A DNA stretch of 64,000 bases from an uncultured Gammaproteobacteria bacterium (GCA_964573695.1 CAZNKB010000006.1:8879-72878); one strand, 5' to 3'. Shown: positions 5,867 to 58,472, counted from the first letter of the stretch. The notes: a model not told the origin generated them from the sequence alone. A program made the numbers and translations.

Positions 5867-8756
5867 CCCGCCATACAATTATCCCGGGGATAATCAGGGC
5901 AAGAAATCCCAGATATTCCAAAGCTTGCGGGATGAACACGATGATAATTTTTTTGTCTGTCTGGTTAATCCTCCAGCCGTTCGCCCAATTATTGACGAGC
6001 ATGTGATTTTGCAGTGGTACCAGGTCGGTGGTGAATGCCCGCCAGCCAGGATCAAAAGATTGACTGAGTGTCAGCAGACTTTCTTTGTTCTTAGGAGTCA
6101 AATCTACAAAGTAGAGGCTGCTTATCGGGTGGGATACCCGGTCGGGGAGTGTCATCGTCGGTTTGTGTAGGCCGCTAAGATCAGTCAGAGGTGCCGCATC
6201 CATAGTCTGGAGCTGGACGGATAATAGATCATTGATACTTGTGTACTGATTATACGAAACGTTGGATAGCATAATGGTGAGCTCGACCTCTGAGGGGAAT
6301 GTGGGCGGCAGGTAAAAATAATCGTATGCAACGCCCAAATGTTTAGGAACTGTTATGTCTAGACCGGCGGGCCGGCCTTTGTTGATGACAGAAAGCATAA
6401 GCGGTTCACCGGCAATATGGCGTGAGCCAACGCCAATAACGAAAGGATTGGTCGTATTGACGTTGTCCAAGATAAAGGACTGACAAAGCTTGGTGTTTGT
6501 GGCTGTAAGGCGCAAAAGGTTTTCTGAAGCACTTCTCGAGCTGTAAGAATATGTATCTCCCGGTGTGTTTTGGCAGGGCACTGCCTCTGATATGGTCGCA
6601 GCCACGGTTGCGACACGCAAAAACGAGAGGTTTTCCAACGTTTCGCCCGACAAAGGTGTGCCTCGTTTGGAAAACTCCGTGGCGTCAGGATCGGTCAGGT
6701 CAGCGGGTGCTTGGGGATCAGAAACGTACGCAGATGTACTGGCAAATAGTTGATCCAGATCGTTGTATGGTTGTCTCTTGGGGATATTTGGCGGATTCTC
6801 TATTATAGATACGTCTGGTGTATCGAAACTGTTCCGCTCAAATACCGTAATGGGTAATAATTTTTCTGCGGAAAATGTGGTGAGCTTGGTATAGTCAGAT
6901 GCGGTTTCGAGATAGGAGCCGAAATCAAGTGACGACAAAAATCCTTTTTGGCTTCTGCAATGGGTGATATTTTGATCATAGAGTACGTATCGCACACCGT
7001 ATTTATCAAATACCCGTTCGACTCGTTCGTAATCCTGTTGTCGGAGTGCCGAGCTTAGTTCCCAGAAATAATTTTCATTATTGTGGCTCCACACGTCAAA
7101 TGCCCGCGCCATGAACGGGTGGTTGACCCCGTACCAGAGGAATCCTGATCCGAAGTATCCCCATAACTGGTTGTACCAGCCTTCTGCACAATCCTGGGGG
7201 AAGTCTGCAATTCTTCCGAACGGCAACGTATTGAGATACCGGGTAAGGAGTTGATATTGCCGCGGCATCGTAACGAATAGTTTTTGATACACGAGTTTTC
7301 CCTGCCACAGAGGAAGAGCAAAAAAGATAAGCGACGCCACACACGCAGGAACTACAATCCGGGATATGGTGTCGCGTGTTATTCGCGTCAATAGGTTTAT
7401 GAGTACGTAGAGTCCTACTCCGATAAGCAGGCTATAGTGGAAGGCCAGCCCGATGCCAAATTTTGTAAATGTTGTCCTGAATGCCTGGGTGAGTTCGGGT
7501 GAGTATGATTGGATGAGTTGTAGCCCTGTCGAAAAAGGAGGAGTGGCTATGGCGATATTGCCGAAAAAATAGAGTGATGATAGGGCAAATCCCCAAGTAA
7601 GCGGTGTACGCCGTCTACCAAGGCCTAGGAATAATCCCAAGACTGCAAGTCCAAAGAACGTATATCCGATTGCGACAATGCCGGGATTTGCGTGGTGTTC
7701 TTTCCAAGGGGCAAGAATCGCCCCTCCCAGTTCGTTGCTTTCCCATAGGAAGCTTTTGAGAAGTGCCGTATCGGCGAGCGTGCCGTATTGGATGCTTTTG
7801 GCGACGAACTGCGGTGTAGTAGTTATATTGTTATATGCATTGATATAGTCTTTGGATTGGGTCAACGTGAAGTATGCCACCGGGCCTAGCCAATAGGCAT
7901 TCACGCAGATGACACACGCCCATATGATGAGAAACGTCCGGAGGATCTTTTTTTCAAACCGGTGCAGCAAAAGGTATACGCCCGTGATGATAAGGAGTGA
8001 AACGCCGTACGAAGCAAATACTGCCGGGATAAATCCCTGGATCGAGCTTATCCCGAGTGCCATGCAAAAGAAGGCGATGCGCTTGGGTGTGACGCGTTCA
8101 AGGAGTGATAAGAGTCCATAGGTGAGCCAGGGCAGCGCTGCAAAGTGGACGGTAAACGCTTCAAGCGGGAGGTAGAACATTTGTATTGTGCCAAGGTTCG
8201 TGAGGTAGTAAATGCTCGTGACCAAGCCTATATAGGTGCCGAGATTGGCATGAAATTTTCTCGATCCGCTGCTCGCGAGTTTATTTGATGCAGAAGGTAC
8301 ATGCCGATAATCCGTCTGCATACGCTGATCAACTTCGGAGCTCGGGAAGCGATCTTCGAAAATTTCATGACTTCCTCGTACATTTTTGTGTCTCTCAAAG
8401 ATATGGTGTAATAATTTTTGACTAACCAATAGCATTCCCAAGCCCCCAAGGTAATAACAGAGGAATATGAACACACTGCGTACCAGATGTTGCGGGATAG
8501 CAATCGACAACAATCCGATAATGAGTGTGTGCGGCAGGGTCGCGGCAAAGCCATGTCCGCCGACAAGACCAGCGCCATAATATTCCTGCCAGCCGGCAGT
8601 AAGACCTCGCAAAAGGTTTAAGGGGATATTGAGTTCCGGATACAGTCCGTCCCAACCCATAAGTGACTGGTCGATAGAAAAATTGGCCGCAATAATAGTG
8701 CCCACGAAGATGTGATAGAGGATAAGTACTATGGTTTTTGGCGTCAGTTTAATCAT
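5856..8756 (-). CDS. Large polytopic membrane protein, GT-C-fold glycosyltransferase-like (YfhO/AftD-like architecture), with a large extracytoplasmic C-terminal domain and a terminal TM
   Basis: 966 aa. More than 10 predicted TM helices in the N-terminal ~600 aa, a soluble ~330 aa domain, and a final TM (LGFLALIIPGIIVW). Its start overlaps the upstream GT-C gene by 8 nt (ATGATTAA). Confidence 0.55.
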   Translation of the reverse strand: MIKLTPKTIVLILYHIFVGTIIAANFSIDQSLMGWDGLYPELNIPLNLLRGLTAGWQEYYGAGLVGGHGFAATLPHTLIIGLLSIAIPQHLVRSVFIFLCYYLGGLGMLLVSQKLLHHIFERHKNVRGSHEIFEDRFPSSEVDQRMQTDYRHVPSASNKLASSGSRKFHANLGTYIGLVTSIYYLTNLGTIQMFYLPLEAFTVHFAALPWLTYGLLSLLERVTPKRIAFFCMALGISSIQGFIPAVFASYGVSLLIITGVYLLLHRFEKKILRTFLIIWACVICVNAYWLGPVAYFTLTQSKDYINAYNNITTTPQFVAKSIQYGTLADTALLKSFLWESNELGGAILAPWKEHHANPGIVAIGYTFFGLAVLGLFLGLGRRRTPLTWGFALSSLYFFGNIAIATPPFSTGLQLIQSYSPELTQAFRTTFTKFGIGLAFHYSLLIGVGLYVLINLLTRITRDTISRIVVPACVASLIFFALPLWQGKLVYQKLFVTMPRQYQLLTRYLNTLPFGRIADFPQDCAEGWYNQLWGYFGSGFLWYGVNHPFMARAFDVWSHNNENYFWELSSALRQQDYERVERVFDKYGVRYVLYDQNITHCRSQKGFLSSLDFGSYLETASDYTKLTTFSAEKLLPITVFERNSFDTPDVSIIENPPNIPKRQPYNDLDQLFASTSAYVSDPQAPADLTDPDATEFSKRGTPLSGETLENLSFLRVATVAATISEAVPCQNTPGDTYSYSSRSASENLLRLTATNTKLCQSFILDNVNTTNPFVIGVGSRHIAGEPLMLSVINKGRPAGLDITVPKHLGVAYDYFYLPPTFPSEVELTIMLSNVSYNQYTSINDLLSVQLQTMDAAPLTDLSGLHKPTMTLPDRVSHPISSLYFVDLTPKNKESLLTLSQSFDPGWRAFTTDLVPLQNHMLVNNWANGWRINQTDKKIIIVFIPQALEYLGFLALIIPGIIVWRAKK

Positions 8757-21674: not shown

Positions 21675-24600
21675 TTACACGGCTTTCTTTTTGGCAAACG
21701 ACACTTGAAGTTTGTCCCCCGCAACGTCAATGCGATTTGCTTTCCACGATGGGTTGATCTTGCCGTTTAAGTGCGTGAGTACCAGATCATTGAAATGATC
21801 GAGGCTTTCATGAATTGATTTTTGCCATGGTCTGGCAAGGAGCGGCAAATGGAGGCTCAATGTGTCTTTCTTAACTATGAGGCCATGTGTGGGGTCGGTA
21901 ATGAGTGTCCCCGCAAACTGCGCTTCGCCGACGATTGTTTTGGCCTTCATGTCGGTAAGTTTTACCGTGTTGCCTTCGATTGTAATTTTTCCTCCGGTGA
22001 TCCGGGCCCCCGGTAGTTCGACCGAGGATCGGACGTAATCCATAAGTTCACCGGTGGTAAGTTGTACTGCTGCTTGGGTTTCGCGTGCCTTGTTCAATAC
22101 GTATGTAATACGATCTTCGACTCCTTCAGGGAGGCGCTCGGGAGCGCGAGGTGTCTCCGTTTGTATCGCGGGTGGTTCTGTCGGCTGTGCGTTTGTTACG
22201 TCGGGAGATGCGATGCTTGAGGCGACAGTTTCTGTCGGTGTTTCCGCTTCAGTTGGTTTTTCCGGTTGGTCGCCTGCTAATGTTTCGAGATGTTCGCGGG
22301 GCGATTCGGGTGCGTTCGGGACTGCGGCAACTACCTCTTGCGCTGCGGTTTTTGCAAAGCTCTCAATGTCCGGTGTGGCTGCCATATTGGCGCTGAGGTT
22401 GGTCATATCCGTTATGGTAATCGCACCGTCTTTGAGTTCGTAGGTGAGTCCGAGCGTATCCATGGTGCGTCCAAAATACGCATCAAATCGTGCGGGGTTG
22501 GAAGATTTGAGCGTCGGGTACATGTTGGCATACATATTGTTGATATGGGCCTCCATAGTTTCTTTGGTGAATTGTTCGTTGGCTTTTTTGGCCATGTCTT
22601 CCCAATGCATGTCTTTGTATACTTCGTTGTTTGCAAGCGGCACCGAGGGCTCTGCAAGTCCGAGTTGTTGGAGTTGCATATAAACGGTTTCCTTTGGATC
22701 CATGGTTGCCGCTAACGAAGGGAGAGAAACCGCGACATCCGGAGTTTTTCTGGCGTCCGTTAACATCCAGGCGACCTCCCGTTCTTCCATGAGTGGGGAA
22801 TTGGGGTTATATCCGCCGATAGCAGCTAAAGAACCAGACCGTACAGCAGTGTTTCCCTGAAATGCAGCGGGTACGCTTTGCGTTTCTCCGTGACGGACGA
22901 GGGCATCAAAGATTTCAAACGCACGGTGATGTGCGAATAACATCGGGTAGTTGGCATACGCGTCTTTCGGAAGTTGATATATGCCGCTGACGATATCAAG
23001 AGAAGGATTGGCATCAAATGTATCGATGATGCTGGATAGATACGTGGCTTCGACCGGGTTTCCTGTGCTGTTTTCGGCAATAAGCGAAACTTCCGGCGCG
23101 TCCGGAGGGCGACTTGCGACCAGTGACAATGCGTAGTTACTCAGGTCCCGTTTTATGCGTCCGGAGGTCGGAGGTTCTGCATAGGTATTGGTGATAAATT
23201 GCACCTGCATATCCGGATGATCCGCACGGAAGCGGTCAATTTCTGCTTTGGTGTCTCCTGGTAGTGTGGAGGTGACTGATTCTGCCGGCGGGGTCACGTT
23301 GGCTTCGTAGACGACAAATGCCACGCGCTTCGGATCAAGCGCGGATCCGTCGGCATTTGTTTGTTGCGCGTATGTACTGAGCCGCTGATATATCGTATTG
23401 CCGTTTTGTACCAGGGGAATCGAAACGATTGCTCGTGTGTCAGGCGAGAGGACCGGATTATCTTGAGCTTTGAGCGCTTCAAGTGTTTGTTGTTCTTCCG
23501 GTGTGAGGAGCGAAAGGTACCAATCAATTTCTTCCCGTTCATTGAGTTTTGCTTGCGGATTTTCGGTGAGCCTTGGTGACATACGGTTTGCCCGTGCTTC
23601 ACGGTTTAAGAATGTTTCTTCATAGCCAAACGGACTGATCATGGTTTCACCCGGGATCATCTGACCCATGAGCCCCTCTATGGGAGCGGCTTCGAGGACC
23701 TCTCTATACGGCAAGAAAATCGGTATCCATGGAAGTTCTCGCGCCGCTGCTCCCGGAGTGACAACCGTTTCTACATGGTACGGAATTTCCAGAGGGGCGG
23801 ATGCGAAAATTTTACCCGGCTCATCACTCTTGAATACCTCCGTAAGGGTAAACTGATGTATGGCATCGGTTTTTACCTCAGTTATGGGTGTGGGCACTAT
23901 CGGAGTCCCGACAAATGGCGACTCAGGGCTTTCGGGTAATCCAAGTTTTTCCATGAGAGGAGCTAATTCTGCCTGACTGGGTAAATCGGCATCCCGTCCG
24001 AAATAGCTCATCCGAAGGAGAAGGGCGTCGATTTTGTCCTGATCGGAGCCTTTTTCCAGGAGGTGTAACGCGTCCATAGGACTCTGGCCCGAAGCGACGA
24101 TGTCTTGATAATGTTTGATCGCCAGATCATTCATTTCTGAAAAGCGATGTACGGCTTCCGGACTAAACAGCTCCTTCGGCACATTGATATGCGCATCATT
24201 AGCGATATGGGCGATATCAAATTCTTTGACCGGCGTATCCCCGAATGTGGCATCGCGGAGGCGGGCAACGTGGTCATAGGGGTTGCTTCCGTTATCGCCG
24301 AAACTTACGTTCTGCGGGATTCCGTCGGCCGTATGCGGTACGTAATGCTGTTCATACAGACGGAAAAGATTCTTGATACCATTGGCACTCGCTACCCGAT
24401 GTTCACCACTGGATTTGTCGAGGAAATAATCCCAAAGTCCACCTTCCTGCAGATCACTACCTTTGATGTCGATCATGTCACCTGCATTAGCACTTTCCGG
24501 TGTGCCGGAAACAAATACACTTGTTGCAGGGAACGATTCGATCTTTGCAGGAATGATTTCCTGAGATTTCCACTCAAATCCATTGGCTTTTAGATCTGCC

Positions 24601-27600
24601 GTCAGCTTCGCAAGCTCGGCCGGTGTGCCTTGTAGTTCTCCTGTTTGGGTAAAATCAACGGTACTTACGATTTGCTTATCTGCGTTGAGTATTTGCCAGT
24701 GATGACTACTGTCAAGATATTTGAGTGTATAATCTTCCGGCAATTTCGCGGTAAGTGGCTCTCCGCCTGGTGTTGTCAGGTGGGGAATGGTGACAACGTC
24801 ATGTATGCTGGAGACTGCCTCTCCGGCTTTGTGGGGTTCAGTTATCGATAATCCGGCTTTTACCAGCGCATCTTTGAATTGCTGTTCGGATAAATGCGTT
24901 CCGAGTACCACGTCTTCCTGTCCTTTAAGATTCTCGATAAGGCTGATATCCAATTTTGCGTCATAGAAAACTTTGCCGTTTTCGGTATATGGATTGACAA
25001 TCATTTCTTTGGGTAATTGATATACGTTATGCCCAATGGAAATGATGTGTTCGCCGGTCGGAGGAGATAGTTCGACATGCGACGAACCTGTAGCGTTTGC
25101 TGCGTCAGAAAGTTCGGCTGCCCCCCGGGTAACCGTATCGCTCGTCCCTATATGTGCAAGTCCCTGGAATGCGGCTCCTACCGCGGCTCCGACGACTCCT
25201 GCTTTGACGCCGTATTTGACGGCTTCGATCTTCGCTTCGGATTTGAATTCTTCGAGTATGGCGTCGAGTCCGAGCGCCTTCTCGTCGCCGCTTAGGTTTT
25301 TGGAAGCGAATGGCCACCGGCGCCTCATGATTTCTGCTTCCGGTGCATACGAAGAAACGAGGTTGAGCGTCAATTTCAGCGGATCGTCGAGGGCGTCAAG
25401 CGATTGGGCTCCTTGCCGTAGTACCTGCGTTTGGGTGACCGTTAGTTTTTCCATGAATTCCGCAAATGTATTGCCGCCAAGCACAAGGTCGGCCTGTTCG
25501 GTATGTCCGGCCAGATATGATTCGATATCAGCAAGTGCTTTGTTGGCGGTAAGATCGAGCGCGCTTCGCTCGCTTTCAATGGATTCGCGGTTTGTGTACT
25601 GTATCAAACCGATTCTTTTGGGTCCTGTTTCGCTGACTGCCTTGCGTGCGTGAAGATCGGCAATGGTAGCAAATGACGCCCGTAGTTCATCGTCGGACAG
25701 GTTTGCTTTGAGAGTATCGCCTTCGTAAAGGGAAGATTGCAGTGTCGCGATCATTTCGTCTGCCCTGCGTTGCTTGACTGCAAATTTTTCAAACCAGTTC
25801 CTGCGTTTCTGGGTTTCGGTAAACTGAGCGCCGCTTTCGCGTTCCCGTAGGTGTGTCATGTAATCTTTCTGCAATTGTCCGTATTCACGCCAGCCGGCGA
25901 ACAATCCTCCTGCAAGCGCTCCTCCCGTGAGACTTCCCAGCGGCCCTGTGATAGAGGCGACTGCTTTAAATGGCGCGGTCTTGAGGAAGTTGACTGCCGA
26001 GAGCGCGATTGCAACTCCCGAGCCGATTGTCGCTTCGTTAAAGACCATAGGAACTAAGACATGCTGCTTATTGAGCCAGTCGGCGATTTCCCGGATCTGT
26101 CCGACGCCTTTTTCCACCGCAGTCGGCTCCAAGCTGGTAACTTCTCCCATGGCGCCCAGTCCTAGTCGTATTTGCATGGAGTTTATCGCTTCATCGATAT
26201 TTGCGAGTCCTCCCTCATGGCTCATTTTGGTGCGTAGCGTTTCTGCTACCTCATACAGACTCGAACTATATAATTCTGCCTCAGCAAAAATATCCGGGCG
26301 TGTATTGTTTAGCGTCGCTTTGAAGAATTCTTTTGTTCGGGCATCAAATTCTGCTTTGTCCGCTATTTCGCCACTGGCGTATTGTTTGAGTAAGCTTTGT
26401 ATCCCTTCTACCAACGGTTTGTGTTCTTCGCGTGCAGGGTCGAGAATCTCGAGTTTTTCTCCCAGTTGCTTACGGACGAACTGATCCGCCTGGTCAAAAT
26501 CTCCTCCGAAGCGTGCGCGAACCGCTTTGGCTTCGCGCTCAAATGTCTCGAGACCTTTGATTTCTCCCGTAAGTCTCATGGTTCCGATTTCTTCCAGAGC
26601 GATATTTTGGATTGTGGTGCGCATGCCAACCTTATCTTTGAACCAGTCAACTGCCTTGGTCCCTATTCGGAGTATGAAATTGGAATCTGCCAATTTCGCA
26701 TTGTATTTGTCCGTGGCTCTTCGTTCGGCTAATCTGATCGCGTCTTCCGCAAAGGGTGTTTCTGCTGCCTTGAGCATGTCGATGTAGTATTGGCGGGCTT
26801 TTTCATGGAAATAAATGCCGCCGATGCTTTGCTTCCATGTAGTGACCGCGAAATTTTCTATGTTCGCTACCGCGTCTTTGGTTTTTTCCCAGAGATTGCG
26901 TGTCGCCTGGGTCCGCTCCGCGGATTGCGGATGCGTAAGCTTCTGCATACTACGGTCGGCCAAATCCAGCGCCCGGGTTTCATAGGCTTTGAGCCCCACA
27001 ATGGTAATGACATTGGGGTCTTCGGTCAGGGTTTCCAATATCTCGCGGGCGCCTTTGGCGGGAGTGGGTTCCTGCTGCACTGCCTCCGGCGTTGGAGCCT
27101 CCGGAGCATGTTGCTCTGGAGTCGCGGGAGCGGGAGTTTCGGGAGACAGGGCGGGTGATTCTGTCGGTTTGTCTTGACTTGTCGGGGTTTCCCCAGAGGC
27201 TGCCGGTTCCTGTGGTATTTGAGCCGGTGTTTCCTGTTTGATAGCCGGTGCGGCGGGAGCTTGCGGCTCCAGCGTGAGCATATCTTTCGTGATCATGTGA
27301 GTGGCGTTTTGTTCGTCTGACCATTGCAATCCCGAAATTTTATCCCAGGGTACTTCATCAAAGGCATTGAGATTTGTGAGCGGTTTATCGACGAGCTTGC
27401 CTTCCTCTCCTTTTTTGCGGCTGAGTTCTTTGACGAGAGGAACGATGCTTCCCACTCCGTCGTTGGAGCGTTTCTCTGCCGGTAATATGGTGATATAGGA
27501 AATATCCTTGCCTCCGATAAGCTGCGGCTGTGAAAGATAGATCGGCGTTTCTCCTACGATAATCGATTGCTGTTTGCCGATTTCAGGATTGTTTTGTGGT

Positions 27601-27617
27601 GGGATTGGTTCTGTCAT
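21675..27617 (-). CDS. giant hypothetical protein (1980 aa) with a low-complexity Pro/Glu/Ala/Thr segment and internal glycine-zipper hydrophobic helices
   Basis: Single uninterrupted ORF. Residues ~100-190 are PAAPAIKQETPAQIPQEPAASGETPTSQDKPTESPALSPETPAPATPEQHAPEAPTPEAV. Mid-protein hydrophobic segments VAIALSAVNFLKTAPFKAVASITGPLGSLTGGALAGGLFAGW and VKYGVKAGVVGAAVGAAFQGLAHIG. No enzymatic motif recognised. Confidence 0.6.
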   Translation of the reverse strand: MTEPIPPQNNPEIGKQQSIIVGETPIYLSQPQLIGGKDISYITILPAEKRSNDGVGSIVPLVKELSRKKGEEGKLVDKPLTNLNAFDEVPWDKISGLQWSDEQNATHMITKDMLTLEPQAPAAPAIKQETPAQIPQEPAASGETPTSQDKPTESPALSPETPAPATPEQHAPEAPTPEAVQQEPTPAKGAREILETLTEDPNVITIVGLKAYETRALDLADRSMQKLTHPQSAERTQATRNLWEKTKDAVANIENFAVTTWKQSIGGIYFHEKARQYYIDMLKAAETPFAEDAIRLAERRATDKYNAKLADSNFILRIGTKAVDWFKDKVGMRTTIQNIALEEIGTMRLTGEIKGLETFEREAKAVRARFGGDFDQADQFVRKQLGEKLEILDPAREEHKPLVEGIQSLLKQYASGEIADKAEFDARTKEFFKATLNNTRPDIFAEAELYSSSLYEVAETLRTKMSHEGGLANIDEAINSMQIRLGLGAMGEVTSLEPTAVEKGVGQIREIADWLNKQHVLVPMVFNEATIGSGVAIALSAVNFLKTAPFKAVASITGPLGSLTGGALAGGLFAGWREYGQLQKDYMTHLRERESGAQFTETQKRRNWFEKFAVKQRRADEMIATLQSSLYEGDTLKANLSDDELRASFATIADLHARKAVSETGPKRIGLIQYTNRESIESERSALDLTANKALADIESYLAGHTEQADLVLGGNTFAEFMEKLTVTQTQVLRQGAQSLDALDDPLKLTLNLVSSYAPEAEIMRRRWPFASKNLSGDEKALGLDAILEEFKSEAKIEAVKYGVKAGVVGAAVGAAFQGLAHIGTSDTVTRGAAELSDAANATGSSHVELSPPTGEHIISIGHNVYQLPKEMIVNPYTENGKVFYDAKLDISLIENLKGQEDVVLGTHLSEQQFKDALVKAGLSITEPHKAGEAVSSIHDVVTIPHLTTPGGEPLTAKLPEDYTLKYLDSSHHWQILNADKQIVSTVDFTQTGELQGTPAELAKLTADLKANGFEWKSQEIIPAKIESFPATSVFVSGTPESANAGDMIDIKGSDLQEGGLWDYFLDKSSGEHRVASANGIKNLFRLYEQHYVPHTADGIPQNVSFGDNGSNPYDHVARLRDATFGDTPVKEFDIAHIANDAHINVPKELFSPEAVHRFSEMNDLAIKHYQDIVASGQSPMDALHLLEKGSDQDKIDALLLRMSYFGRDADLPSQAELAPLMEKLGLPESPESPFVGTPIVPTPITEVKTDAIHQFTLTEVFKSDEPGKIFASAPLEIPYHVETVVTPGAAARELPWIPIFLPYREVLEAAPIEGLMGQMIPGETMISPFGYEETFLNREARANRMSPRLTENPQAKLNEREEIDWYLSLLTPEEQQTLEALKAQDNPVLSPDTRAIVSIPLVQNGNTIYQRLSTYAQQTNADGSALDPKRVAFVVYEANVTPPAESVTSTLPGDTKAEIDRFRADHPDMQVQFITNTYAEPPTSGRIKRDLSNYALSLVASRPPDAPEVSLIAENSTGNPVEATYLSSIIDTFDANPSLDIVSGIYQLPKDAYANYPMLFAHHRAFEIFDALVRHGETQSVPAAFQGNTAVRSGSLAAIGGYNPNSPLMEEREVAWMLTDARKTPDVAVSLPSLAATMDPKETVYMQLQQLGLAEPSVPLANNEVYKDMHWEDMAKKANEQFTKETMEAHINNMYANMYPTLKSSNPARFDAYFGRTMDTLGLTYELKDGAITITDMTNLSANMAATPDIESFAKTAAQEVVAAVPNAPESPREHLETLAGDQPEKPTEAETPTETVASSIASPDVTNAQPTEPPAIQTETPRAPERLPEGVEDRITYVLNKARETQAAVQLTTGELMDYVRSSVELPGARITGGKITIEGNTVKLTDMKAKTIVGEAQFAGTLITDPTHGLIVKKDTLSLHLPLLARPWQKSIHESLDHFNDLVLTHLNGKINPSWKANRIDVAGDKLQVSFAKKKAV

Positions 27618-30080: not shown

Positions 30081-31358
30081 ATGCTTCCCTATACCAAAAC
30101 AGTCTTACCAAATGGGCTTCGTTTGATCCTTGTTCCCATGGAAGGAGTCAACAGTGTGGCTACCTCCGTTATGGTCGGCGTAGGGAGTCGTTATGAAACA
30201 GCACACATCAATGGTATTTCTCATTTTTTGGAGCACATGGTGTTTAAGGGGACGGATAAATATCCGACGACAGACGACGTCAACACGATCGAACGTGCAG
30301 GGGGTCTTCAGAATGCCTATACCGATATAGACATTACCAATTACCATAACAAAGTCCTGAGTGAGGATTGGTTGCTTGCTTTGGATATCAATAAGGAGTT
30401 GGCGATACATCCCAAGCTGCCGGAGGAGTGGGTGGATCGCGAGCGCGATGTCATTTTGGAAGAAATGAAGCGCTATGAGGATGAGCCGGCAAACAAAGTA
30501 GAAGAAGTCTATCACGGTTTGCTTTATCCCAACACAAAGCTTGGTATGCGCATCATCGGAGAGGAAGCGAGCTTGCGTTCGGTGGGAGCCAAAGAGCTGC
30601 GAGGATATCATGATTCCTGGTATGCGCCAGAGCGCATGGTCATTATGCTTGCAGGTAGATTGGCAGAGCATAGTAGTAAGATAGCGGAACAGGTAGAGGC
30701 GTGGTTTGCTCCCCTCCAGAAGAAAAAAACCGGAGATATCGATGTGGTTACTCCTATGCAAAAGGAGCCGCAGCTTGCCGTGGTCACGAAGCGGGAGGCG
30801 GCACAGGCGCATATGATTATCGGGCTTCGGGCATTTGAGCGCAGTAGCGAGGACCGGTTTGCCTGGAATTTATTTAACCTTATCATGGGGGTGTCGTTTA
30901 CCAGCAGGCTGTTCAAAGAAATCCGGGAGAAACGCGGACTTTGTTACCACGTGCGTAGCGGAAGTTCTTCGTATCACGATGTCGGAAGCTGGGATATCTA
31001 TGCGGGCGTGGCAACAGACAAGGTGGAAGAAGCAACCAAAGCAATTATGGAAGAGCTTGCCAAAGCAAAAGCCAAAGGTATCACGGAAGATGAGCTTGCT
31101 GTGGCCCGTAAGCGTCTCAAAACTATGCTTGCGTTTAGAAGTGAAGACCCTGAATTCTGGACCGAATGGTACGGGCGAGCTGAACTTTTTGGTATGCCGC
31201 TCATGACACTTGAAGACTATATCAAAAAGATAGATATTGTAACAAAAGAAGACATTAATGCCTTGATTATCAAGTACTTTAGAACCGAGCGCCTGAATAT
31301 GTCGCTTGTGTGGAGTAAGCCTCGTGACGAGAATCTTCTGAATTTGCTTCACCTATAA
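30081..31358 (+). CDS. M16 family zinc peptidase (pitrilysin/insulinase-like)
   Basis: 425 aa. Inverted zinc motif HFLEHMVFKGT (HxxEH), a downstream Glu, and a typical M16 N-terminal domain. Confidence 0.8.
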   Translation: MLPYTKTVLPNGLRLILVPMEGVNSVATSVMVGVGSRYETAHINGISHFLEHMVFKGTDKYPTTDDVNTIERAGGLQNAYTDIDITNYHNKVLSEDWLLALDINKELAIHPKLPEEWVDRERDVILEEMKRYEDEPANKVEEVYHGLLYPNTKLGMRIIGEEASLRSVGAKELRGYHDSWYAPERMVIMLAGRLAEHSSKIAEQVEAWFAPLQKKKTGDIDVVTPMQKEPQLAVVTKREAAQAHMIIGLRAFERSSEDRFAWNLFNLIMGVSFTSRLFKEIREKRGLCYHVRSGSSSYHDVGSWDIYAGVATDKVEEATKAIMEELAKAKAKGITEDELAVARKRLKTMLAFRSEDPEFWTEWYGRAELFGMPLMTLEDYIKKIDIVTKEDINALIIKYFRTERLNMSLVWSKPRDENLLNLLHL

Positions 31359-31370
31359 TTGATTTCTTGA

Positions 31371-31658
31371 TTATTTCTGCTCGCGGTGGAGGCGGGAGGC
31401 GGTCTCTGCGAGCATGGTGTGCCACTTGGCGATAGCATGAAAAATCAGTCCCTCTACGTGTAGCTCTGCTTGTTCGACGAAATCTAGTTCCCGACCTGCC
31501 TGAGCCGCAAAGGCATCATTTAACGACGCGATTGAACGTGCTTGGCGAGCAAGCCGGTATTGTGCTGCTATCGGATCAACATTGGTTTCGTCTGCGGGGC
31601 GTCTCCTGGTGTGCATCATGAGAACGGTATTATAGTGCATGCGAGTAATATGTTGCAA
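31371..31658 (-). CDS. hypothetical protein
   Basis: 95 aa ORF, convergent with the peptidase. Confidence 0.3.
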   Translation of the reverse strand: MQHITRMHYNTVLMMHTRRRPADETNVDPIAAQYRLARQARSIASLNDAFAAQAGRELDFVEQAELHVEGLIFHAIAKWHTMLAETASRLHREQK

Positions 31659-31667
31659 TAATAAGAA

Positions 31668-31681
31668 CTATAGGTTATAAT
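31668..31681 (+). promoter_or_regulatory. Promoter motif CTATAGGTTATAAT (extended -10), 22 nt before the start codon
   Basis: An identical 14-mer is repeated at 33677-33690 upstream of the paralogous gene. Confidence 0.4.
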
Positions 31682-31703
31682 TTGTCCTTCGTTATGCCCG
31701 TAT

Positions 31704-32333
31704 ATGCAACCTACTATAATCGGATTACTCGGTAAACCGTTGGCGGGGAAAGACACTGTTGCCCGTGCACTTGCAGACTCGCTTCCGAATCTCGCTACAA
31801 TTTCCATGGGAGAGGTAGTGCGGGAGGTGAAAGCAGTGGGACCTGCTCACCGTTTTTGGAATGAATTACATGATTCTATAGGTATAGCCGATGCTGGCGG
31901 TATCGCTCCGGACGGACCTATTTTCGAATGTCTGACCAAGCTTATCACCGAGCAGTTTGACAAGGGCGCGGAAACAGTTGTTTGGGTTGCCGGCCCGAGA
32001 AGTGAGCAGCAGCTAGACTGGTTGGATTCGTGGACAAAAGATTGCGGATATCAAGAACAATTCGTGTATATCGATGTCCCGGATGAAATGGTGTATGAGC
32101 GGGTTAGTGAGCGCGCTGCACACATGAGAGAAGATGACAAGGTGGTTCCCTATAGACTTGCCGAGTTTGAACGGATTACCAAGCCAGTTATAGATCGGCT
32201 TCGGGAGCAGGGGAGAATCCGCGAGATAAGTGGCTTGGGTGGGAGAGAAGCCGTGGGTTCGCGTGCTGTGGAGATATTTATGCCCGTACAAAAAGAACAC
32301 GAGCCTACATTACCCACGATGGCGCGACGATAA
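31704..32333 (+). CDS. adenylate kinase-like nucleoside monophosphate kinase (divergent, P-loop)
   Basis: 209 aa. Walker A GKPLAGKDT. NMP-binding-like ISMGEVVREV. Ends in LPTMARR. Paralog of 33699-34343. Confidence 0.55.
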   Translation: MQPTIIGLLGKPLAGKDTVARALADSLPNLATISMGEVVREVKAVGPAHRFWNELHDSIGIADAGGIAPDGPIFECLTKLITEQFDKGAETVVWVAGPRSEQQLDWLDSWTKDCGYQEQFVYIDVPDEMVYERVSERAAHMREDDKVVPYRLAEFERITKPVIDRLREQGRIREISGLGGREAVGSRAVEIFMPVQKEHEPTLPTMARR

Positions 32334-32349
32334 TCGGCACGTTTGTATA

Positions 32350-33174
32350 TTAGCGTGAGGAGGATTTCTGTTTGGACGCAGACCGCGCTAAGCGCTTAAG
32401 GCGAATTTTGATGTCATCGACTTCGTTAGTTATGAGTTCCAGTTCTTTGGATAGTGTTGACTTCTGTATATGCCGCGCTTCTTCCATTTCTTCACGCACT
32501 TCCTCAAAGCCACTGATGACGACCCCGATAAACAAATTTAGGATAATCATGGTTCCCACAACGATAAAACTGACGTAGTAAAGCGTCGAGATAAGTGAAT
32601 ATGACTGCAGGGAGTAGATTTCTACCCAGCCCTCTAATGTGACGATCTCAAAAAGGGTGATAAGCGAGCGCCCCAAGTCGCCGAAGTGCGCAGGATCAGA
32701 ATCACCGAATTCTACGTTTCCTATGACAGCATAGATATAGAATTGTATAAAAAGGAGAAGTCCCACATACCCGATAGACGGAATGCTTTTGATGAGTGCA
32801 CCTACGAGGAGTTGAAGGCGGGGAAGCGCGGAAAATACTCGAAAGATCCGCAATATGCGCACGAGTCGCAAGACCGAGGCGTACGCGCCTCCGAATGGCA
32901 GATAAAAAAGACTGGTGACGGCAAAGTCAAATGTATTCCATTTCGAGCGGAAAAATCTCCAGGGTTTATTGCCCAGAGCCAATATCCGCAGCGTAATTTC
33001 CACGGTGAAGATGATTTGGATGATTGTGTCCAGGGTGGCAAACAGTGGATGGAATCGATTGGAAAGATTAGGATACGTTTCTAGTCCTACAGCAAGCGAA
33101 GCGACAAGGATAACTCCCATGATGAAGGGGGCAAACAGACGATGTTGCGTGATCGTGCGTCCTATTGCATTCAT
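32350..33174 (-). CDS. Voltage-gated ion channel, single 6TM domain, NaChBac/BacNaV-like
   Basis: 274 aa. S4 helix with Arg at every third position (VLRLVRILRIFRVFSALPRL). Pore/selectivity filter FEIVTLEGWVEI (TLESW-like). C-terminal coiled-coil. TATAAT immediately before the ATG, so possibly leaderless. Confidence 0.75.
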   Translation of the reverse strand: MNAIGRTITQHRLFAPFIMGVILVASLAVGLETYPNLSNRFHPLFATLDTIIQIIFTVEITLRILALGNKPWRFFRSKWNTFDFAVTSLFYLPFGGAYASVLRLVRILRIFRVFSALPRLQLLVGALIKSIPSIGYVGLLLFIQFYIYAVIGNVEFGDSDPAHFGDLGRSLITLFEIVTLEGWVEIYSLQSYSLISTLYYVSFIVVGTMIILNLFIGVVISGFEEVREEMEEARHIQKSTLSKELELITNEVDDIKIRLKRLARSASKQKSSSR

Positions 33175-33225
33175 GAATATGGATTATAGAAGAATATTTT
33201 TTGGTGGGCAACGATTACTACGCTT

Positions 33226-33465
33226 TTATCTGGTCCGCCTGGGTTTTTGGGCTTCGAGCAGCGTGTGGCGTTCGGTATGAGTTGCCGCATTGCCGAACTG
33301 GGTACGGGATCTCCGTTCATATTGCTCCGCTTCTTCGTGCCGGCCCATTTTAGCAAATATCTCCGCTAACCGGTGATAGACGGCAGACAGATCCCACGCG
33401 AGCTGCGTCATTTTTTCCTCTGTTTGTTGGTGATCTAATATGACCTCAATGGGTTTTGTTGCCAT
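33226..33465 (-). CDS. small hypothetical protein
   Basis: 79 aa ORF. No SD. Confidence 0.3.
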   Translation of the reverse strand: MATKPIEVILDHQQTEEKMTQLAWDLSAVYHRLAEIFAKMGRHEEAEQYERRSRTQFGNAATHTERHTLLEAQKPRRTR

Positions 33466-33676
33466 ACACGTATTGTATCGTATGTGTCACGCAGTGTATT
33501 GTTTTTTCTCTGAGGCCAAAGGAATTGGCCGCACGGAAAAAACGGGGAGACGAGTGAAAAGCGCTTGCAATTGTAGACACTGCATATTATGTGTGTGATC
33601 GAGAAGCAGAAGTCAGGTATTTGAACCTGAATGGGTATTATAACAAAGAGGAAAATACTTGTTGCAAAGAATTATA

Positions 33677-33690
33677 CTATAGGTTATAAT
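33677..33690 (+). promoter_or_regulatory. Promoter motif CTATAGGTTATAAT (duplicate of 31668-31681)
   Basis: Exact 14/14 match, 8 nt before the GTG start of the paralog. Confidence 0.4.
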
Positions 33691-33698
33691 TAAATTTA

Positions 33699-34343
33699 GT
33701 GAAGCCGATCCTCCTTGCAATCATAGGCAAACCCCTTGCCGGCAAAGATACCCAGGCAGATTTACTTGTCGCAGCTCACCCCGAGGCGGTCAAAATATCT
33801 ACAGGGCACATTATGCGTGCGGTGCGTGAGGAAGGCGAAACCCATAGATTTTGGCCTCTTATCGGGCCGTATATCCCCATGATGGAGCAGGGGCTTAAGC
33901 TACCGGATGAACCTACAATTGCGATGCTAGGAGAAGTGATACAAGAGCAGCTTACTGAGGGGAAGCGACTGCTGGTTGTTGCCGGTTCTCCCAGGGGTAC
34001 GGAACAGCTCGAAGGGTTTGAGCGTATCGCAAGCACAACCGGCGCCAAGCTGGTGCTCGTTCATATGGATGCGACCGATGAAGAAACCTACAAAAGAAGT
34101 GCTGCCCGCAACGAGGGAAGGGTAGACGACACACCCCAGGTTCATAAGGTACGGCTTACGGAGTACGAAGAGTATGTCGGGCCTATGGTGGATAAACTCG
34201 CCCGCGAAAACAGGCTTATTTGGGTCAACGGTATGCAGCCGGTTGAGGGGGTATTTCGGCAGTTAGAGCAACAGTTACGTCAGCACATGCTCGACCCTGA
34301 AATCGCCCCGGAAATTACCTTGCCCGCCATGGCCCGCCGTTAA
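33699..34343 (+). CDS. adenylate kinase-like nucleoside monophosphate kinase (paralog)
   Basis: 214 aa, GTG start. GKPLAGKDT. ISTGHIMRAVRE (adenylate-kinase NMP-binding motif). Ends in LPAMARR. Confidence 0.6.
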   Translation: MKPILLAIIGKPLAGKDTQADLLVAAHPEAVKISTGHIMRAVREEGETHRFWPLIGPYIPMMEQGLKLPDEPTIAMLGEVIQEQLTEGKRLLVVAGSPRGTEQLEGFERIASTTGAKLVLVHMDATDEETYKRSAARNEGRVDDTPQVHKVRLTEYEEYVGPMVDKLARENRLIWVNGMQPVEGVFRQLEQQLRQHMLDPEIAPEITLPAMARR

Positions 34344-34386
34344 TATACAGGGCTTCTAGTCCTACATTGAATGGATAATCGTCACT

Positions 34387-34644
34387 TCACCGTACCCTTT
34401 GGAGTCGGGGGAGTAGTCGATGAGGAATGGTTTTGTGTTCTTTGCGCGTAGGGAATCCACTTCTTTCCGCTTCTTCTACTGTTGCCATACGGAGGCCATG
34501 TTTTTCGAAATAAGCCGCGAGCGCGGGTCTCACGCTCTCTCGGTCAACGACATGGGTCATGATATTGCTGATGTCTGCAATGTGCACGTGTCCATTGGGC
34601 TCAACGACGATAATTTGATTACCTAAGACAACTTCATGGGTCAC
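34387..34644 (-). CDS. hypothetical protein
   Basis: 85 aa ORF. Confidence 0.35.
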   Translation of the reverse strand: MTHEVVLGNQIIVVEPNGHVHIADISNIMTHVVDRESVRPALAAYFEKHGLRMATVEEAERSGFPTRKEHKTIPHRLLPRLQRVR

Positions 34645-34670: not shown

Positions 34671-35021
34671 TCACCTGTGTTTTGAGAATTGCTCGTATTT
34701 ATTATGGTGCGGTCGTCGTTTTGGCAGAGTCGTCGGTTGATTGAGTGAAGATAGGAGTTCTCGTATGCTACCCACTCGGGCGCCACGGCTTACCGACATA
34801 AGGGCCGCGAAGTCTTTGGCTGCTGCCCGCGTGCCATGCTCTACAGTCCAGCCGATGCCCTCGTGGCCGAACATGCGGGAAAGGTCGATAGCAATATTGC
34901 GCTCATATGTGCCTTCCGACTCAAGAACCCCGCGTTTCCGGACGTCTACCGATCGTTTTTTCCACCCACCACGCCCGTCTGCTACCATGATTTCCCGTTT
35001 TGGCATTGTGATTGAGTTCAC
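34671..35021 (-). CDS. hypothetical protein
   Basis: 116 aa basic ORF. Confidence 0.35.
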   Translation of the reverse strand: MNSITMPKREIMVADGRGGWKKRSVDVRKRGVLESEGTYERNIAIDLSRMFGHEGIGWTVEHGTRAAAKDFAALMSVSRGARVGSIRELLSSLNQPTTLPKRRPHHNKYEQFSKHR

Positions 35022-35083: not shown

Positions 35084-35509
35084 ATGAGTCCTATGATCGA
35101 AAAAACCGTTGTTCTCATTAAGCCGGACGGCATGGAAAAACACGTCGTCGGTGAAATCATTACCCGTTTTGAGAAGGCTGGATTGAGACTGGCAGCGCTT
35201 AAGTTAGTTCAGCTCACTCAGCCTATCCTCGATACGTGGTACGCACACCACAAAGACAAGCCGTTTTTTCCTGAATTGTCGAAACAAATGATGTCTACTC
35301 CCGTTGTTGCGATAGTGCTGGAAGGCGACGGGGTGATCCAGAAGGTATTTGATATTTGCGGTCCGACTGACCCGGCGGAAGCTGCTCCAGGCACGATTCG
35401 ACGGGATTTCGGAGTGGATAAGCCGCACAATGTGGTTCACCGGTCTGATTCCGCCGAGGCCGCAGCCAAAGAAATCAGCCTGTTGTTTGGGTCCAGTGAC
35501 ATATATTAG
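35084..35509 (+). CDS. ndk: nucleoside diphosphate kinase
   Basis: Start moved to the internal ATG (MSPMIEKTVVLIKPDGMEKHVVGEIITRFEKAGLRLAALK). Active-site His in NVVHRSDSAEAAAKEISLLF (NxxHGSDS pattern). Confidence 0.85.
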   Translation: MSPMIEKTVVLIKPDGMEKHVVGEIITRFEKAGLRLAALKLVQLTQPILDTWYAHHKDKPFFPELSKQMMSTPVVAIVLEGDGVIQKVFDICGPTDPAEAAPGTIRRDFGVDKPHNVVHRSDSAEAAAKEISLLFGSSDIY

Positions 35510-55456: not shown

Positions 55457-55704
55457 GAGGTCTAGAAAAAATCAAAGTATATCTAAGCTTGTTAGTACGG
55501 GAAATATGCGTTTATGTGATAAGAGAACGATAAGATTATGATCTGGTTAGTCCGGTGCTTGACAAGGTGTGAAAAGCAGGCGTACAGTAGATATATAACT
55601 TACACATATTAGTAATAACTGTGAAAGTTATTGGTAAGCACTTGTAAAAACTTGGTTTAATTTCGCATTGGTACGGGCTAAAGGGTTTGGGAGCCTGCCT
55701 GGAC

Positions 55705-57636
55705 ATGCCCAAAACATATACTGTCAAAGAAGTCGCTGATATACTCGGGTTTAGCACGAATAGCATCTACACGTTCCTAAAAGAGAAGCGGATAAAAGGC
55801 GTGCGCGTCGGCAAAGGCCGGTTCCGTATCCCCGAAGAGGAATTAGCACGCATACTCCATATCAGTAAGAAGTCAGCCGCTACAACACCCGCCCCCGTGG
55901 AAGCCCCAGAAGGTGTATCTGCCCCAGTACTCAAGCCCGAAGGCGATGCTGCATTTATTACGTCTCAGAGCTCCTATGAGTCGGGGAAGGCAAATGATGT
56001 CCTTGTACCCAATATTTTTGATTGGTTTGTCGGCTTGGCGTCTCTGATTGCCGGAGTGGGATTATTTTTGTTTAATTCCTCGACCAATTCGCTTGAGGTT
56101 ACACGAACTACTTTGGTTTTTCCTGTTATTCGCGTGGTACTGATCGCCTGCGGATTTGGCGTCATACTAAGCAGTATTTTTGCACAAGGAAGGAATTGGC
56201 ATAGGGTTTTCCTCTATGCGCTTTCCATGCTGGGGTTTGTAAATGCATTCGGACTTGCCCGAAACGGGGATATGGAGGGAGCGTTTTTGTATGGCGGGTT
56301 AGCACTTATCATCGGCGTGACGAATGTCGTTCCCTTTGGGGGAATTGTCTCGATCGGATTGTATGTGACGCTTGTGGCGTTGTTGTATCCGGTGACTATA
56401 GTGTTTTTTCCTAGTGACACACACGTTCAGTTACTCTCTGGGGCACTTCACTTGTCGGCCCCGCTTATGGTCGTGGGGTCATTGATTGTCGGCATTGTGT
56501 TGCCGATTCTTTTTTGGGTGGGATATGCGAGCAATCGCAGGCTTTTCATCGCGACGACTGCTTTGTTGGGACTTGCGGATATGGTTGTCGCTGTTTGGTA
56601 TGCGCACCTGCAACTATGGAGCAGATCGTTTTTTATCATCGTACTCGGATACTTCACAGTGTTCTTACCGCATTGGTGGCCTTTGCAGCAAAAAATTGCA
56701 AGGCGCTACAAGCTTGTGCTGCACGGGTTGTTTTTGGTGATCGGAAGCATATTGGTCATAGCCGTGCTTGTTGTGTATTTGTTGCAGCAAAACCTTTGGA
56801 ACTCGCGGGAAAGTGAATTCGCGAATAAAATAAAAGTAGCGCAGTTGTCGCTAAACAGGGCGGTTGAGTCCGTGCAGGGTTCGCTCACTGTTGCGGCACA
56901 AAATCGTGAATTTACCGATACGTTGGTGAAGAAGGATCTGGAAAAACTGACCGTGTTTGCCAAAATTGTGTATGAGAGTAACCCCAATATCCGCCGGCTC
57001 GTATTTTTGGACAAAGAGGGTGATGGCGTCGCGCTTTATCCATACGGAACATTTGACCAGCCGAATTTATCTTACCGCGATTATTTTACCCAGGCCAAAT
57101 CAACAGGTCGCCCGTATGTCTCAAACGTATTTCAGTCCCAGGCAGATCATGCCGGTCGGTATGTGGTGGTTGTGGCAGTGCCGTTTCAGGATGCCAAGGG
57201 AGATTTTGCCGGAGTCATAACCGGCTCGATTGATTTGCGTCGCGTGGGACTCCAGCTCGCACAGATAGCCGCTGATACTCGCGGAGAGTATTTTGTCGTG
57301 ACCGATGCGAAAGGGGTTATTCTCATTCACCCGGATGAAAAACTTATCGGGACGGACGTCTCTTCCGGTGATCCGATGCTGCGGGGGTTATCGGGGGCTC
57401 CCGGGGTAAACCACGGAATTACTATTGACGCTTCTTACGGTATGGTCGCCTATGCTGATGTGCCGATACTTCGGTGGGTTATAAGCCTGCGGGTGCCGGC
57501 GGAAAACGTATTTGAACTCACCTATGTGAGCATCTGGTATGTCTATGGAACGGTGGTCGTTCTTCTGCTTATTGGTATCTATATTTTTTCCTACGCCAGA
57601 CTAAGAATGGGACAATCGAAAGAAGGCGGGACCTGA
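55705..57636 (+). CDS. Membrane one-component regulator: N-terminal excisionase/MerR-type HTH, polytopic membrane domain, periplasmic Cache-like sensor domain, C-terminal TM
   Basis: ATG at 55705 is preceded by a GGGAG SD; the track start at 55687 is a [53 protein letters not shown]. ~8 TM helices. A ~260 aa extracytoplasmic domain with Cache-like features ([20 protein letters not shown]...VVVVAVPF). Terminal TM. Its stop overlaps the next start (TGATGA). Confidence 0.65.
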
Positions 57637-58403
57637 TGAACAAAACTTCCATAAGACCAGAGAAACAACAGAAATCCGCAGTCAGCGGATTTCTCGCTGT
57701 AAAGGGTTTTGGGCCATTCGGCCGATTGTCATTAATCGGCGGCTTTTCGCCGATCATGCCGTTTCTTTTTGCTGTCGTTATCGGAGGATTGGGATTTGTG
57801 TTATTTGAAGCGTTTCGTTTGAGTAGTACGGGTTTGGTAAAAAAGAGTCAGGATCAGATAGCATCACCAATCATTAACCGCTTGACGGAGAAGGTGATTT
57901 CGGAAAGCACATGGATACGTCCGTTTATCGTATTGGTCCAGCGAGCCGATGGATCGTTTGCGTATGCCTATGTAGAAAACGCCGTAGTAAAAAATGATGC
58001 GTTTGTCGGAGATGTGACCATTCGCTATACCAATGGTGAGCGCGGGATCGTGCATGACGAGAACGGATACTTCCGGTTTTTCCTGACAAAGCAGGGTAGC
58101 CAGGAATCGGTGAGAATTCTGGTGCCGATCATTACGGGTATCAGATTGCCCGACGATACAATCATCCTGGCGCAATTTTCTGACGGTACAATTATAGACG
58201 AACAGTTTGTGGGGCCGTTTTCGGCCCTCACTGTGCTTGAGAAATTGCAAATTACGGGAACCCGCTCGGCTCAGGGCGGATACATCACCATAACAGTTAA
58301 CCCGACGCTCAAGTCTGTTGATACAGGTGTGGCGCTCATAGAGCGTGAGATTTTGAAAATGGCCCTTTCTGCAATGGGTCACACAGACAGCGTGTTGGGG
58401 GTA
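57636..58403 (+). CDS. membrane-anchored hypothetical protein (N-terminal TM, ~200 aa extracytoplasmic domain)
   Basis: 255 aa ORF, verified codon by codon in frame 0 ([60 protein letters not shown]...). Not in the supplied track. Ends at TAA 58401-58403, in the same frame as the collagen-like ORF. Confidence 0.5.
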
Positions 58404-58472
58404 ACGACAGATACGCCGGGGATCGATAAACCTCTTAACTTGCCGATATTATCATCGAGCATTGGTACGAAT

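Follow-up and report, generated by a model that had tools for sequence, protein, structure and literature searches.

Short nucleoside monophosphate (NMP) kinases, among them AK1, M. tuberculosis Adk (2cdn), T. thermophilus Adk (3cm0), yeast Ura6 (1uky) and human CMPK1 (7e9v), are the closest described counterparts of two proteins encoded in the DNA studied here, a stretch of 64,000 nucleotides (CAZNKB010000006.1:8879-72878, from assembly GCA_964573695.1, labelled as an uncultured Gammaproteobacteria bacterium) that we call the window. The two proteins, K1 and K2, have the same fold as these enzymes and, like them, lack a long LID insertion and carry the catalytic lysine, all of the catalytic arginines, a GRxDD motif and a glutamine, Q103. 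They differ from them in the P-loop, which reads GKPLAGKDT and not GxPGxGKGT, in an HRFW motif and in a terminal peptide, DPEITLPxMARR, and their identity to the short kinases is 20-27%. Each of the two genes is preceded by a promoter that holds the same short element, which we call the box. We consider, with moderate confidence, that each twin kinase gene has its own strong promoter in which the invariant box is a dedicated regulatory site, and not a chance repeat or a recent copy.

The placement of the box recalls operators of the spacer or the -10 region, such as MerR-type sites and LexA and Fur boxes: in both cases a gene-specific element, common to related genes, lies between -35 and -10 and is conserved across species while adjoining positions drift. 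Unlike such operators, the box of the K genes spans 8-10 nt and is not palindromic, and its promoters have a spacer of 17 nt, compared with 19-20 nt for the MerR type. The start of K2 resembles those of leaderless mRNAs in Actinobacteria, Deinococcus and archaea, in that the -10 element ends 6-9 nt before the start and the first codon is GTG; mycobacterial leaderless genes have the same geometry.

Homologues of K1 and K2 are found in metagenome bins of the Patescibacteria, or candidate phyla radiation (CPR), and the matches in genome collections are labelled Candidatus Gottesmanbacteria; we take the window to come from an uncultured member of this group. To our knowledge, gene regulation in the Patescibacteria is almost unknown, these bacteria being uncultured and having few recognisable transcription factors, and a literature search returned nothing on kinases of the K1/K2 type or on the box in this group. 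Paralogous genes with a common operator or promoter element are a familiar kind of arrangement, and in that respect the finding is modest. What is new is a cis-element, sharply defined and deeply conserved, that belongs to a single gene family of one CPR lineage, together with the delineation of a divergent NMP kinase subfamily whose P-loop is altered and whose terminal peptide is conserved. The box, with its clear promoter geometry and the apparent leaderless expression of the genes, provides a concrete handle for regulon searches, reporter assays and pull-downs. Since a dependence on nucleotide salvage is assumed for CPR bacteria, the substrates and partners of the kinases also bear on the management of nucleotide pools in CPR symbionts.

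The box in the promoters of K1 and K2

The first-pass annotation had pointed to a 14-nt sequence, CTATAGGTTATAAT, in front of both kinase genes and had taken it for a promoter motif. Exact copies stand at 31668-31681 and 33677-33690, both on the plus strand and each 5' of a gene for a kinase of the ADK fold, and no third copy occurs in the window with up to two mismatches allowed. The 14-mer consists of the core ACTATAGG(G/T) joined directly to a -10 hexamer, and at both genes it does lie within a near-consensus promoter of sigma-70 type, TTGCAA-17 nt-TATAAT, which matches the consensus at 10 of 12 positions and falls within the expected spacing of 16-18 nt. Comparison of the two upstream regions extends the identity to 16 nt (ACTATAGGTTATAATT, 31667-31682 and 33676-33691) and reveals a second common block of eight bases further upstream (TGTTGCAA, 31651-31658 and 33660-33667). 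A third, GGTATTATA, lies about 20 nt above TGTTGCAA (31626-31634 and 33634-33642) and is seen in this genome only. An exact 16-mer repeat alone is not rare in this window, where four pairs were observed and 0.5 expected once a collagen-like coding region is set aside; the significance of this one lies in its equivalent promoter position and its conservation across species, not in the repeat itself.

The conservation was assessed over 24 distinct promoters (10 of K1 and 14 of K2) from at least 14 related genomes, with an information logo built from 19 unique promoters. All 24 have a common layout, in which TTGnnn is followed by nine weakly conserved bases, (T)ACTATAGG(G/T) and TAnnnT. ACTATAGG is nearly invariant among them, and more so than the -35 element or the middle of the -10. 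Its eight positions reach 1.7-2.0 bits each in the logo, and the TA beside it 2.0 bits; the corresponding values are 1.1-2.0 bits for the -35 TTG and 0.9-1.3 bits for the middle of the -10 element, and the 5' part of the spacer and the flanks are mostly below 0.6 bits. The box is retained in orthologues with only 52-60% protein identity and in P0128, which represents a cluster of its own at 50% identity. Where K1 and K2 stand in tandem, K2 retains its own promoter within the gap of 41-60 nt between them.

Within the approximately 206 kb examined (the window and the relatives' loci, on both strands), the box is specific to this kinase gene family. Every ACTATAGG 8-mer in Gottesmanbacteria DNA lies in sense orientation 5' of a K gene, and the single 8-mer away from K genes belongs to an unrelated archaeal locus. 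Relaxed patterns show the same restriction, TTGnnn-N13-15-GGKTAnnnT matching almost only K promoters. In genomes that have K2 only, the stop codon TAG of the upstream M16 peptidase gene (as CTA TAG) falls inside the K2 box (for example at 5960-5990 in both L014 and L018), one stretch doubling there as the last M16 codons with their stop and as the promoter box. Coding constraint was rejected as the cause of the conservation, the intergenic copies being equally conserved.

The distance from the promoter to the start codon supports TAnnnT as a real -10 element, because the GTG of K2 lies at a constant 6-9 nt past it in all 14 K2 promoters. The ATG of K1 lies 6-8 nt past it in three promoters and 21-24 nt past it in seven, and this variable distance (6-24 nt) argues against the box being a Shine-Dalgarno or leader motif. 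The assigned start codons are supported by the N-termini of the paralogues, which align from residue 1. With the -10 element ending so close to the start codon, no Shine-Dalgarno sequence is possible at K2, and the geometry implies that its mRNA is leaderless. Each kinase gene would be transcribed from its own promoter, with initiation at the start codon or immediately 5' of it, in every case for K2 and in some for K1. Many genes of the window have TATAAT 6-10 nt before an ATG, with no room for a Shine-Dalgarno sequence (examples are 33183-33188(-), 29598(+), 39865(-), 39582(-) and 40918(+)), a pattern that suggests frequent use of leaderless mRNAs in this CPR genome; a literature search found nothing on leaderless expression in Patescibacteria.

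Readings of the box

Because the box is kept upstream of both genes in all relatives examined, co-regulation of the two kinases, which the first-pass annotation had suggested, is the natural reading. In the mechanism that we propose, the box, (T)ACTATAGG(G/T), is an asymmetric element filling the 3' half of the spacer from about -22 to -13, and would be the recognition site of a dedicated trans-acting factor, a putative repressor or activator that binds between -35 and -10. In an alternative form of the same proposal, it would be a promoter-specific contact for RNA polymerase or sigma. Both kinases would then be under a single control, even when the genes lie apart as they do in this genome. 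Factor binding at the box, like the direction of regulation and the substrates of the kinases, is something that we infer.

Several points weigh against a dedicated site. No transcription factor gene is conserved beside the locus, either in the relatives' loci or, by Pfam, in the neighbourhood within the window, and Pfam scans of 40 other open reading frames (ORFs) of the window returned no sigma factor and no obvious regulator near the kinase locus. The box is short and asymmetric compared with the usual palindromic operators of dimeric repressors, and further genes beyond the roughly 200 kb examined may carry it. The transcription start sites are predicted from promoter geometry alone. Finally, the GG(G/T)TAY part of the box resembles a -10 element of the sigma-B/F type, which makes the involvement of an alternative sigma factor possible.

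Developed in full, this last point would make the box part of an alternative-sigma promoter, with a sigma-B/F-like -10, GGGTAY, and a GTTG-type -35 about 14 nt upstream, and the two genes would be co-regulated through the availability of the sigma factor with no separate transcription factor. The GG and TA of GG(G/T)TA(T/C/A) are invariant and this portion matches GGGTAT, the -10 consensus of sigma-B and SigF; GTTG is present at the -35 element of all K1 promoters, and the near-exclusive occurrence of TTGnnn-N13-15-GGKTAnnnT at K promoters is also in keeping with such an arrangement. However, the ACTATA 5' of the GG is equally invariant, and is not explained by a sigma-B-type -10, while TTGcaa-17-TAtaaT is already an excellent housekeeping promoter. 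Moreover, no gene for a sigma or anti-sigma factor was seen in the window or the loci, which cover about 5% of a genome. We regard an alternative-sigma promoter as unlikely.

A more inclusive proposal, which we consider distinctly unlikely, joins the box to the GKDT P-loop and the PEITLPxMARR tail of the proteins as a hitherto undescribed, lineage-specific module for the control of nucleotide salvage in CPR bacteria, with a dedicated nucleotide-sensing factor, possibly the kinases themselves by way of their basic tail, acting at the box. If true, this factor would bind the box and set how strongly two NMP kinases of different substrates are expressed, and the module would be among the first cis-regulatory circuits defined in Patescibacteria. 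The stricter claim of kinase autoregulation, where the basic C-terminal tail or the whole protein binds the box and couples nucleotide status to transcription, is highly improbable. Tail and box co-occur in all of the K1, K2 and P0128-type genes examined, and the models predict a disordered tail that stands apart from the fold (predicted local distance difference test (pLDDT) score of around 50), as would be the case for a docking peptide. However, common descent explains the co-occurrence equally well, the kinases are without a DNA-binding domain, and we know of no precedent for a protein of the adenylate kinase fold as a sequence-specific DNA binder.

That the regulatory region was recently duplicated or converted within this genome, which the first-pass annotation had raised, would explain why the two promoters have the same -35 TTGCAA, the same T in the box and the same -10 TATAAT (8 + 16 identical bases), when those of the sister genome L010 are unlike each other at these positions; K1 and K2 promoters also differ within L001, L005 and L007. 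Four observations speak against it. Six of the eight positions in the interval that separates TGTTGCAA from ACTATAGGTTATAATT are mismatched between the K1 and K2 copies, and the same box is present at 24 promoters across genomes, being just as invariant where the two promoters of a genome are otherwise unlike. L020, which has G and TATAAT at both promoters where this genome has T and TATAAT, carries an identical 16-mer pair of a different sequence, TACTATAGGGTATAAT. Lastly, the K2 promoter of the window is colinear with that of L020 (88%), and K1 and its promoter are L010-like, which points to separate histories. Among the relatives, the freedom of the 16-mer to vary is confined to about four positions (the G/T position and the three inner bases of the -10 element), so that coincidental identity is likely; as the 5' spacer has diverged and the promoters differ in origin, gene conversion is unnecessary and very unlikely, and this part of the annotation was not borne out. 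The identity of the 14-mer and 16-mer copies would reflect purifying selection on the box, with both -10 hexamers having the consensus TATAAT.

There is similarly only a slim chance that the motif is a general strong-promoter or extended -10 consensus of the organism, and so uninformative on the kinase genes. TATAAT and TTG-type -35 elements are frequent in the window, and many genes look leaderless. Nevertheless, the box occurs at two of 38 TATAAT sites in the window, the other 36 being without it; a search for ACTATAGGKTA with one mismatch gives only two extra matches, neither of them promoter-like; and in the relatives' loci the 8-mer is found at K genes only. The 14-mer is thus not a genome-wide -10 consensus.

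Three further candidates were rejected. A phage T7-type promoter, with the box as T7 positions -6 to +3 (the ACTATAGGG region of the T7 consensus), would have a conserved specificity region at about -17 to -7, 5' of the TATA initiation region, unlike the nine positions 5' of the box, which are mostly below 0.6 bits. The NrdR box is a 16-bp palindrome, acaCwAtATaTwGtgt, usually in tandem pairs; the K promoters have only a half-site-like ACTATA in a single copy per promoter, and the invariant GG breaks the palindrome. A known RNA element was dismissed, Rfam giving no match over 31300-34450 at E-values up to 1.

The kinases K1 and K2

K1 and K2 are homologous over their full length (33% identity, E 3e-34) and are true paralogues of the adenylate kinase fold; the GKPLAGKDT P-loop and the C-terminal LPxMARR on which their relationship had been proposed are present in both. 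The two proteins exceed the cut-off of the Pfam family ADK (PF00406), with 43.5 bits for K1 and 54.5 bits for K2 against 26.8, and proteins of this type already carry a generic annotation as nucleoside monophosphate kinases. Neither reaches the more specific families of NCBIfam. The best scores are 83.1 against a cut-off of 187 for K2 (NF001381) and 59.6 against 154 for K1 (NF011100); TIGR01351 gives 67.9 for K2 and 58.1 for K1 against 168, and the UMP-CMP kinase family TIGR01359 gives 76.0 and 40.8, respectively, against 207.6. The scores lie two- to fourfold below every curated cut-off for adenylate and UMP-CMP kinases.

AlphaFold2 models of the proteins (pLDDT 90.6 for K2 and 88.7 for K1) have the three-domain CORE/NMPbind/LID fold, and in Foldseek searches of the PDB the top matches are all adenylate or UMP-CMP kinases with a probability of 1.00. 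The best fits are to the short-LID proteins AK1, M. tuberculosis Adk, Ura6 and CMPK1; against the short kinases named at the outset, the template modelling (TM) scores are 0.75-0.79 normalised by the query and 0.80-0.87 normalised by the target. K2 matches adenylate kinases (TM 0.75-0.79), while the top match of K1 is, marginally, human UMP-CMP kinase (7e9v), followed by short adenylate kinases. The long LID of bacterial long-type adenylate kinases is an insertion of about 27 residues that often carries a zinc-binding Cys4 site. It is absent from K1 and K2: alignments to long forms break at about residue 138, those to short forms run from end to end, and target-normalised TM scores are higher for short than for long forms.

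The P-loop is invariant as GKPLAGKDT, with leucine for the fourth glycine and aspartate for the glycine after the lysine; it departs in this way from GxPGxGKGT and retains the general Walker A pattern GxxxxGK. The catalytic lysine, K16, and arginines R99, R133, R137, R141 and R152 are invariant across K1 and K2, and R40, D143 and D144 are at least 90% conserved; these arginines and aspartates align with residues of AK1 and T. thermophilus Adk and include the catalytic arginines and the GRxDD motif. With the catalytic lysine, arginines and GRxDD invariant or nearly so in both, K1 and K2 are probably active phosphotransferases. The first-pass annotation had questioned whether they are true adenylate kinases on the grounds that a canonical LID domain is lacking. 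The long LID is indeed missing, but this alone is no argument against adenylate kinase activity, since the short-LID arginines (R133, R137, R141 and R152) and the aspartate pair are kept as in AK1, UMP-CMP kinase and M. tuberculosis Adk; the doubt is better argued from scores that fall far below all curated cut-offs.

Q103, which follows the PR motif and presumably has a role in adenine recognition, is conserved as in adenylate kinases, and HRFW is invariant in the NMP-binding helices. K1 has methionine in place of the threonine of the TGx motif, which K2 and adenylate kinases keep (TGD/TGH). Taken with the UMP-CMP kinase as top structural match of K1, this replacement hints, not decisively, that the substrates differ, K2 looking the more adenylate-kinase-like of the two. 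The C-terminal extension DPEITLPxMARR is conserved in sequence and predicted to be disordered. In the K2 of this genome it contains a tandem duplication of four residues, PEIA-PEIT (12 nt, window 34283-34339), which none of the 47 other family members in the alignment has.

In a neighbour-joining tree, K1 forms one clade and K2 its sister clade, and the duplication is on this account older than the sampled lineages. A profile search of 1.84 billion representatives recovered about five single-domain clusters of the K1/K2 family above 220 bits. The next single-domain proteins score about 137 bits, and several of them are kinases of GKDT type whose C-termini are basic. Most of the highest-ranking matches are uninformative, being multi-domain proteins of eukaryote type with repeated kinase domains. 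Judged by these scores, the K1/K2 family is narrow and lies within a broader GKDT-type branch, and from their sequences the two proteins go back to an ancient duplication in this short-LID NMP kinase family of Candidatus Gottesmanbacteria. K1 and K2 are the only matches to E. coli Adk by tblastn against the window, and no canonical adk came to light among the 40 other ORFs scanned with Pfam.

The locus and its neighbours

The features of the locus are collected in Table 1.

Table 1. Coordinates of features at the kinase locus, in positions of the window.
Feature	Position	Strand	Description
M16 peptidase gene	30081..31358	+	Conserved upstream neighbour; tblastn 69-86% identity in L001, L002, L004, L005 and L007
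Replaced or inserted block	31342..33661		Small minus-strand ORF, K1 allele, BacNaV channel and 79-aa ORF; about 2.3 kb
Small ORF, 82 aa from ATG 31619	31371..31619	-	Divergent from K1; lineage-specific
K1 -35 hexamer TTGCAA	31653..31658	+	Palindromic
K1 box copy ACTATAGG(T)	31667..31675	+	3' half of the 17-nt spacer
K1 -10 hexamer TATAAT	31676..31681	+	
K1, 209 aa, ATG start	31704..32333	+	Short-LID NMP kinase, ADK fold; GKPLAGKDT, HRFW, tail TLPTMARR
BacNaV-type voltage-gated cation channel, 274 aa	32350..33174	-	Convergent with K1; Ion_trans E 2.5e-49
Channel promoter TTGCCC-17-TATAAT	33183..33211	-	Ends 8 nt before ATG, leaderless geometry; no ACTATAGG box
79-aa ORF	33226..33465	-	Weak TPR-like similarity, sub-threshold; singleton (90%-identity cluster with one member)
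K2 -35 hexamer TTGCAA	33662..33667	+	
K2 box copy ACTATAGG(T)	33676..33684	+	
K2 -10 hexamer TATAAT	33685..33690	+	Ends 8 nt 5' of GTG start
K2, 214 aa, GTG start	33699..34343	+	Short-LID NMP kinase, ADK fold; tail DPEIAPEITLPAMARR
Nucleoside diphosphate kinase gene ndk	35093..35509	+	Conserved downstream neighbour; Pfam NDK E 2e-50

The gene order around the kinases is conserved in at least 14 genomes. The left side begins with the gene of a giant protein (about 1,900 aa) and small ORFs, frequently joined by a BrnT/CopG pair, and ends with the M16 peptidase; in every long locus, Peptidase_M16 precedes K1 or K2. On the right, K1-K2 or K2 alone is followed by two small minus-strand ORFs, ndk and, later, maf, a PEGA-domain protein and mreB. 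The home of the kinases is a nucleotide-metabolism locus made up of the M16 peptidase, K1 (in some genomes), K2 and ndk. In relatives that have both kinases, the genes form a direct tandem with a gap of 41-60 nt.

The window departs from this arrangement. The first-pass annotation described paralogues that bracket a minus-strand channel and a small ORF; this is true here, but the relatives' genes are directly tandem and the channel belongs to a lineage-specific block. L020, the closest relative, shares 88-91% of nucleotides with the window in the flanks and only 67.7% in K1, and is without the channel and the 79-aa ORF; for the more distant L010, the values are 74-76% in the flanks and 83% in K1. 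The match to L020 sets in again exactly at the -35 element of the K2 promoter (33662), which is the right breakpoint. These figures are consistent with a recombination in this lineage that would have brought in the 2.3-kb block with an L010-like K1 allele and left K2 with its own promoter, and K1 alleles appear to have been exchanged between lineages of Gottesmanbacteria.

The channel was correctly recognised as BacNaV-like. It matches NaChBac (6vwx) over its full length (residues 7-261, E 1e-51) and NavMs and others with E of 1e-39 to 1e-40, and its translation has the S4 pattern RxxRxxRxxR and the filter TLEGW. Like NaChBac and other BacNaV proteins, it has a single six-transmembrane domain, S4 arginines and a C-terminal helical tail. 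The selectivity filter of NaChBac and NavAb is TLESW; the channel described here has glycine for the serine, and it also differs in having a CPR bacterium as its host and a gene position that varies from relative to relative. Homologues with 56-64% identity are found in L022 (3277-5824), L023 (45-1562), L024 (1190-1996) and L026 (423-1217). The channel gene is beside K genes in two further genomes: in one it lies between M16 and K1, and in the other it is divergent from K1 across a gap of 84 nt, with an IS200/IS605 Y1 transposase next to it. Two other genomes have the homologue elsewhere, after rplJ/rplL or near DsbA-like genes. A functional link between channel and kinases was rejected, the channel being adjacent to K genes in three genomes in three arrangements and elsewhere in two. 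From these positions, we read the site as a variable insertion region and not as an operon or functional unit, the association being recurrent but not fixed.

The 79-aa ORF between the channel and K2 is absent from the relatives' loci, and the 82-aa ORF between M16 and K1 has no Pfam or NCBIfam match and no tblastn match in the relatives' loci. On the minus strand, TATAAT occurs at 31629-31634 and 33637-33642, 18-19 nt from the palindromic TTGCAA of each kinase promoter, and the first of these (31634-31629) ends 9 nt before the ATG of the 82-aa ORF. This spacing suggests back-to-back promoters with one common -35 element that serve divergent small ORFs.

Between K2 and ndk, minus-strand ORFs at 34387-34644 and 34671-35021 have equivalents in L012, L017, L018, L020 and L022. 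They are kept in nearly all relatives, with sizes there of about 76-96 aa and 105-116 aa, and neither has a Pfam match. Upstream of the locus, an ORF of 1,980 aa (window 21675-27617, minus strand) has syntenic counterparts of 1,880-1,980 aa in most relatives, on which no Pfam domain was recorded.

Towards the end of the window, a protein of 649 aa (55687-57636, plus strand) combines an N-terminal HTH_17 domain of MerR/excisionase type with a dCache_1 sensor domain. Its make-up is that of a one-component-like regulator; no other protein of the window was recognisable as DNA-binding, and nothing ties it to the kinase box. A giant ORF (57516-63998, plus strand, frame 3) runs off the window end and codes for 2,161 aa or more. 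This ORF is the collagen-like region set aside above; it consists largely of Gly-X-Thr triplet repeats, holds 84 of the 88 exact 16-mer repeat pairs of the window and has a GC content of 55-59%.

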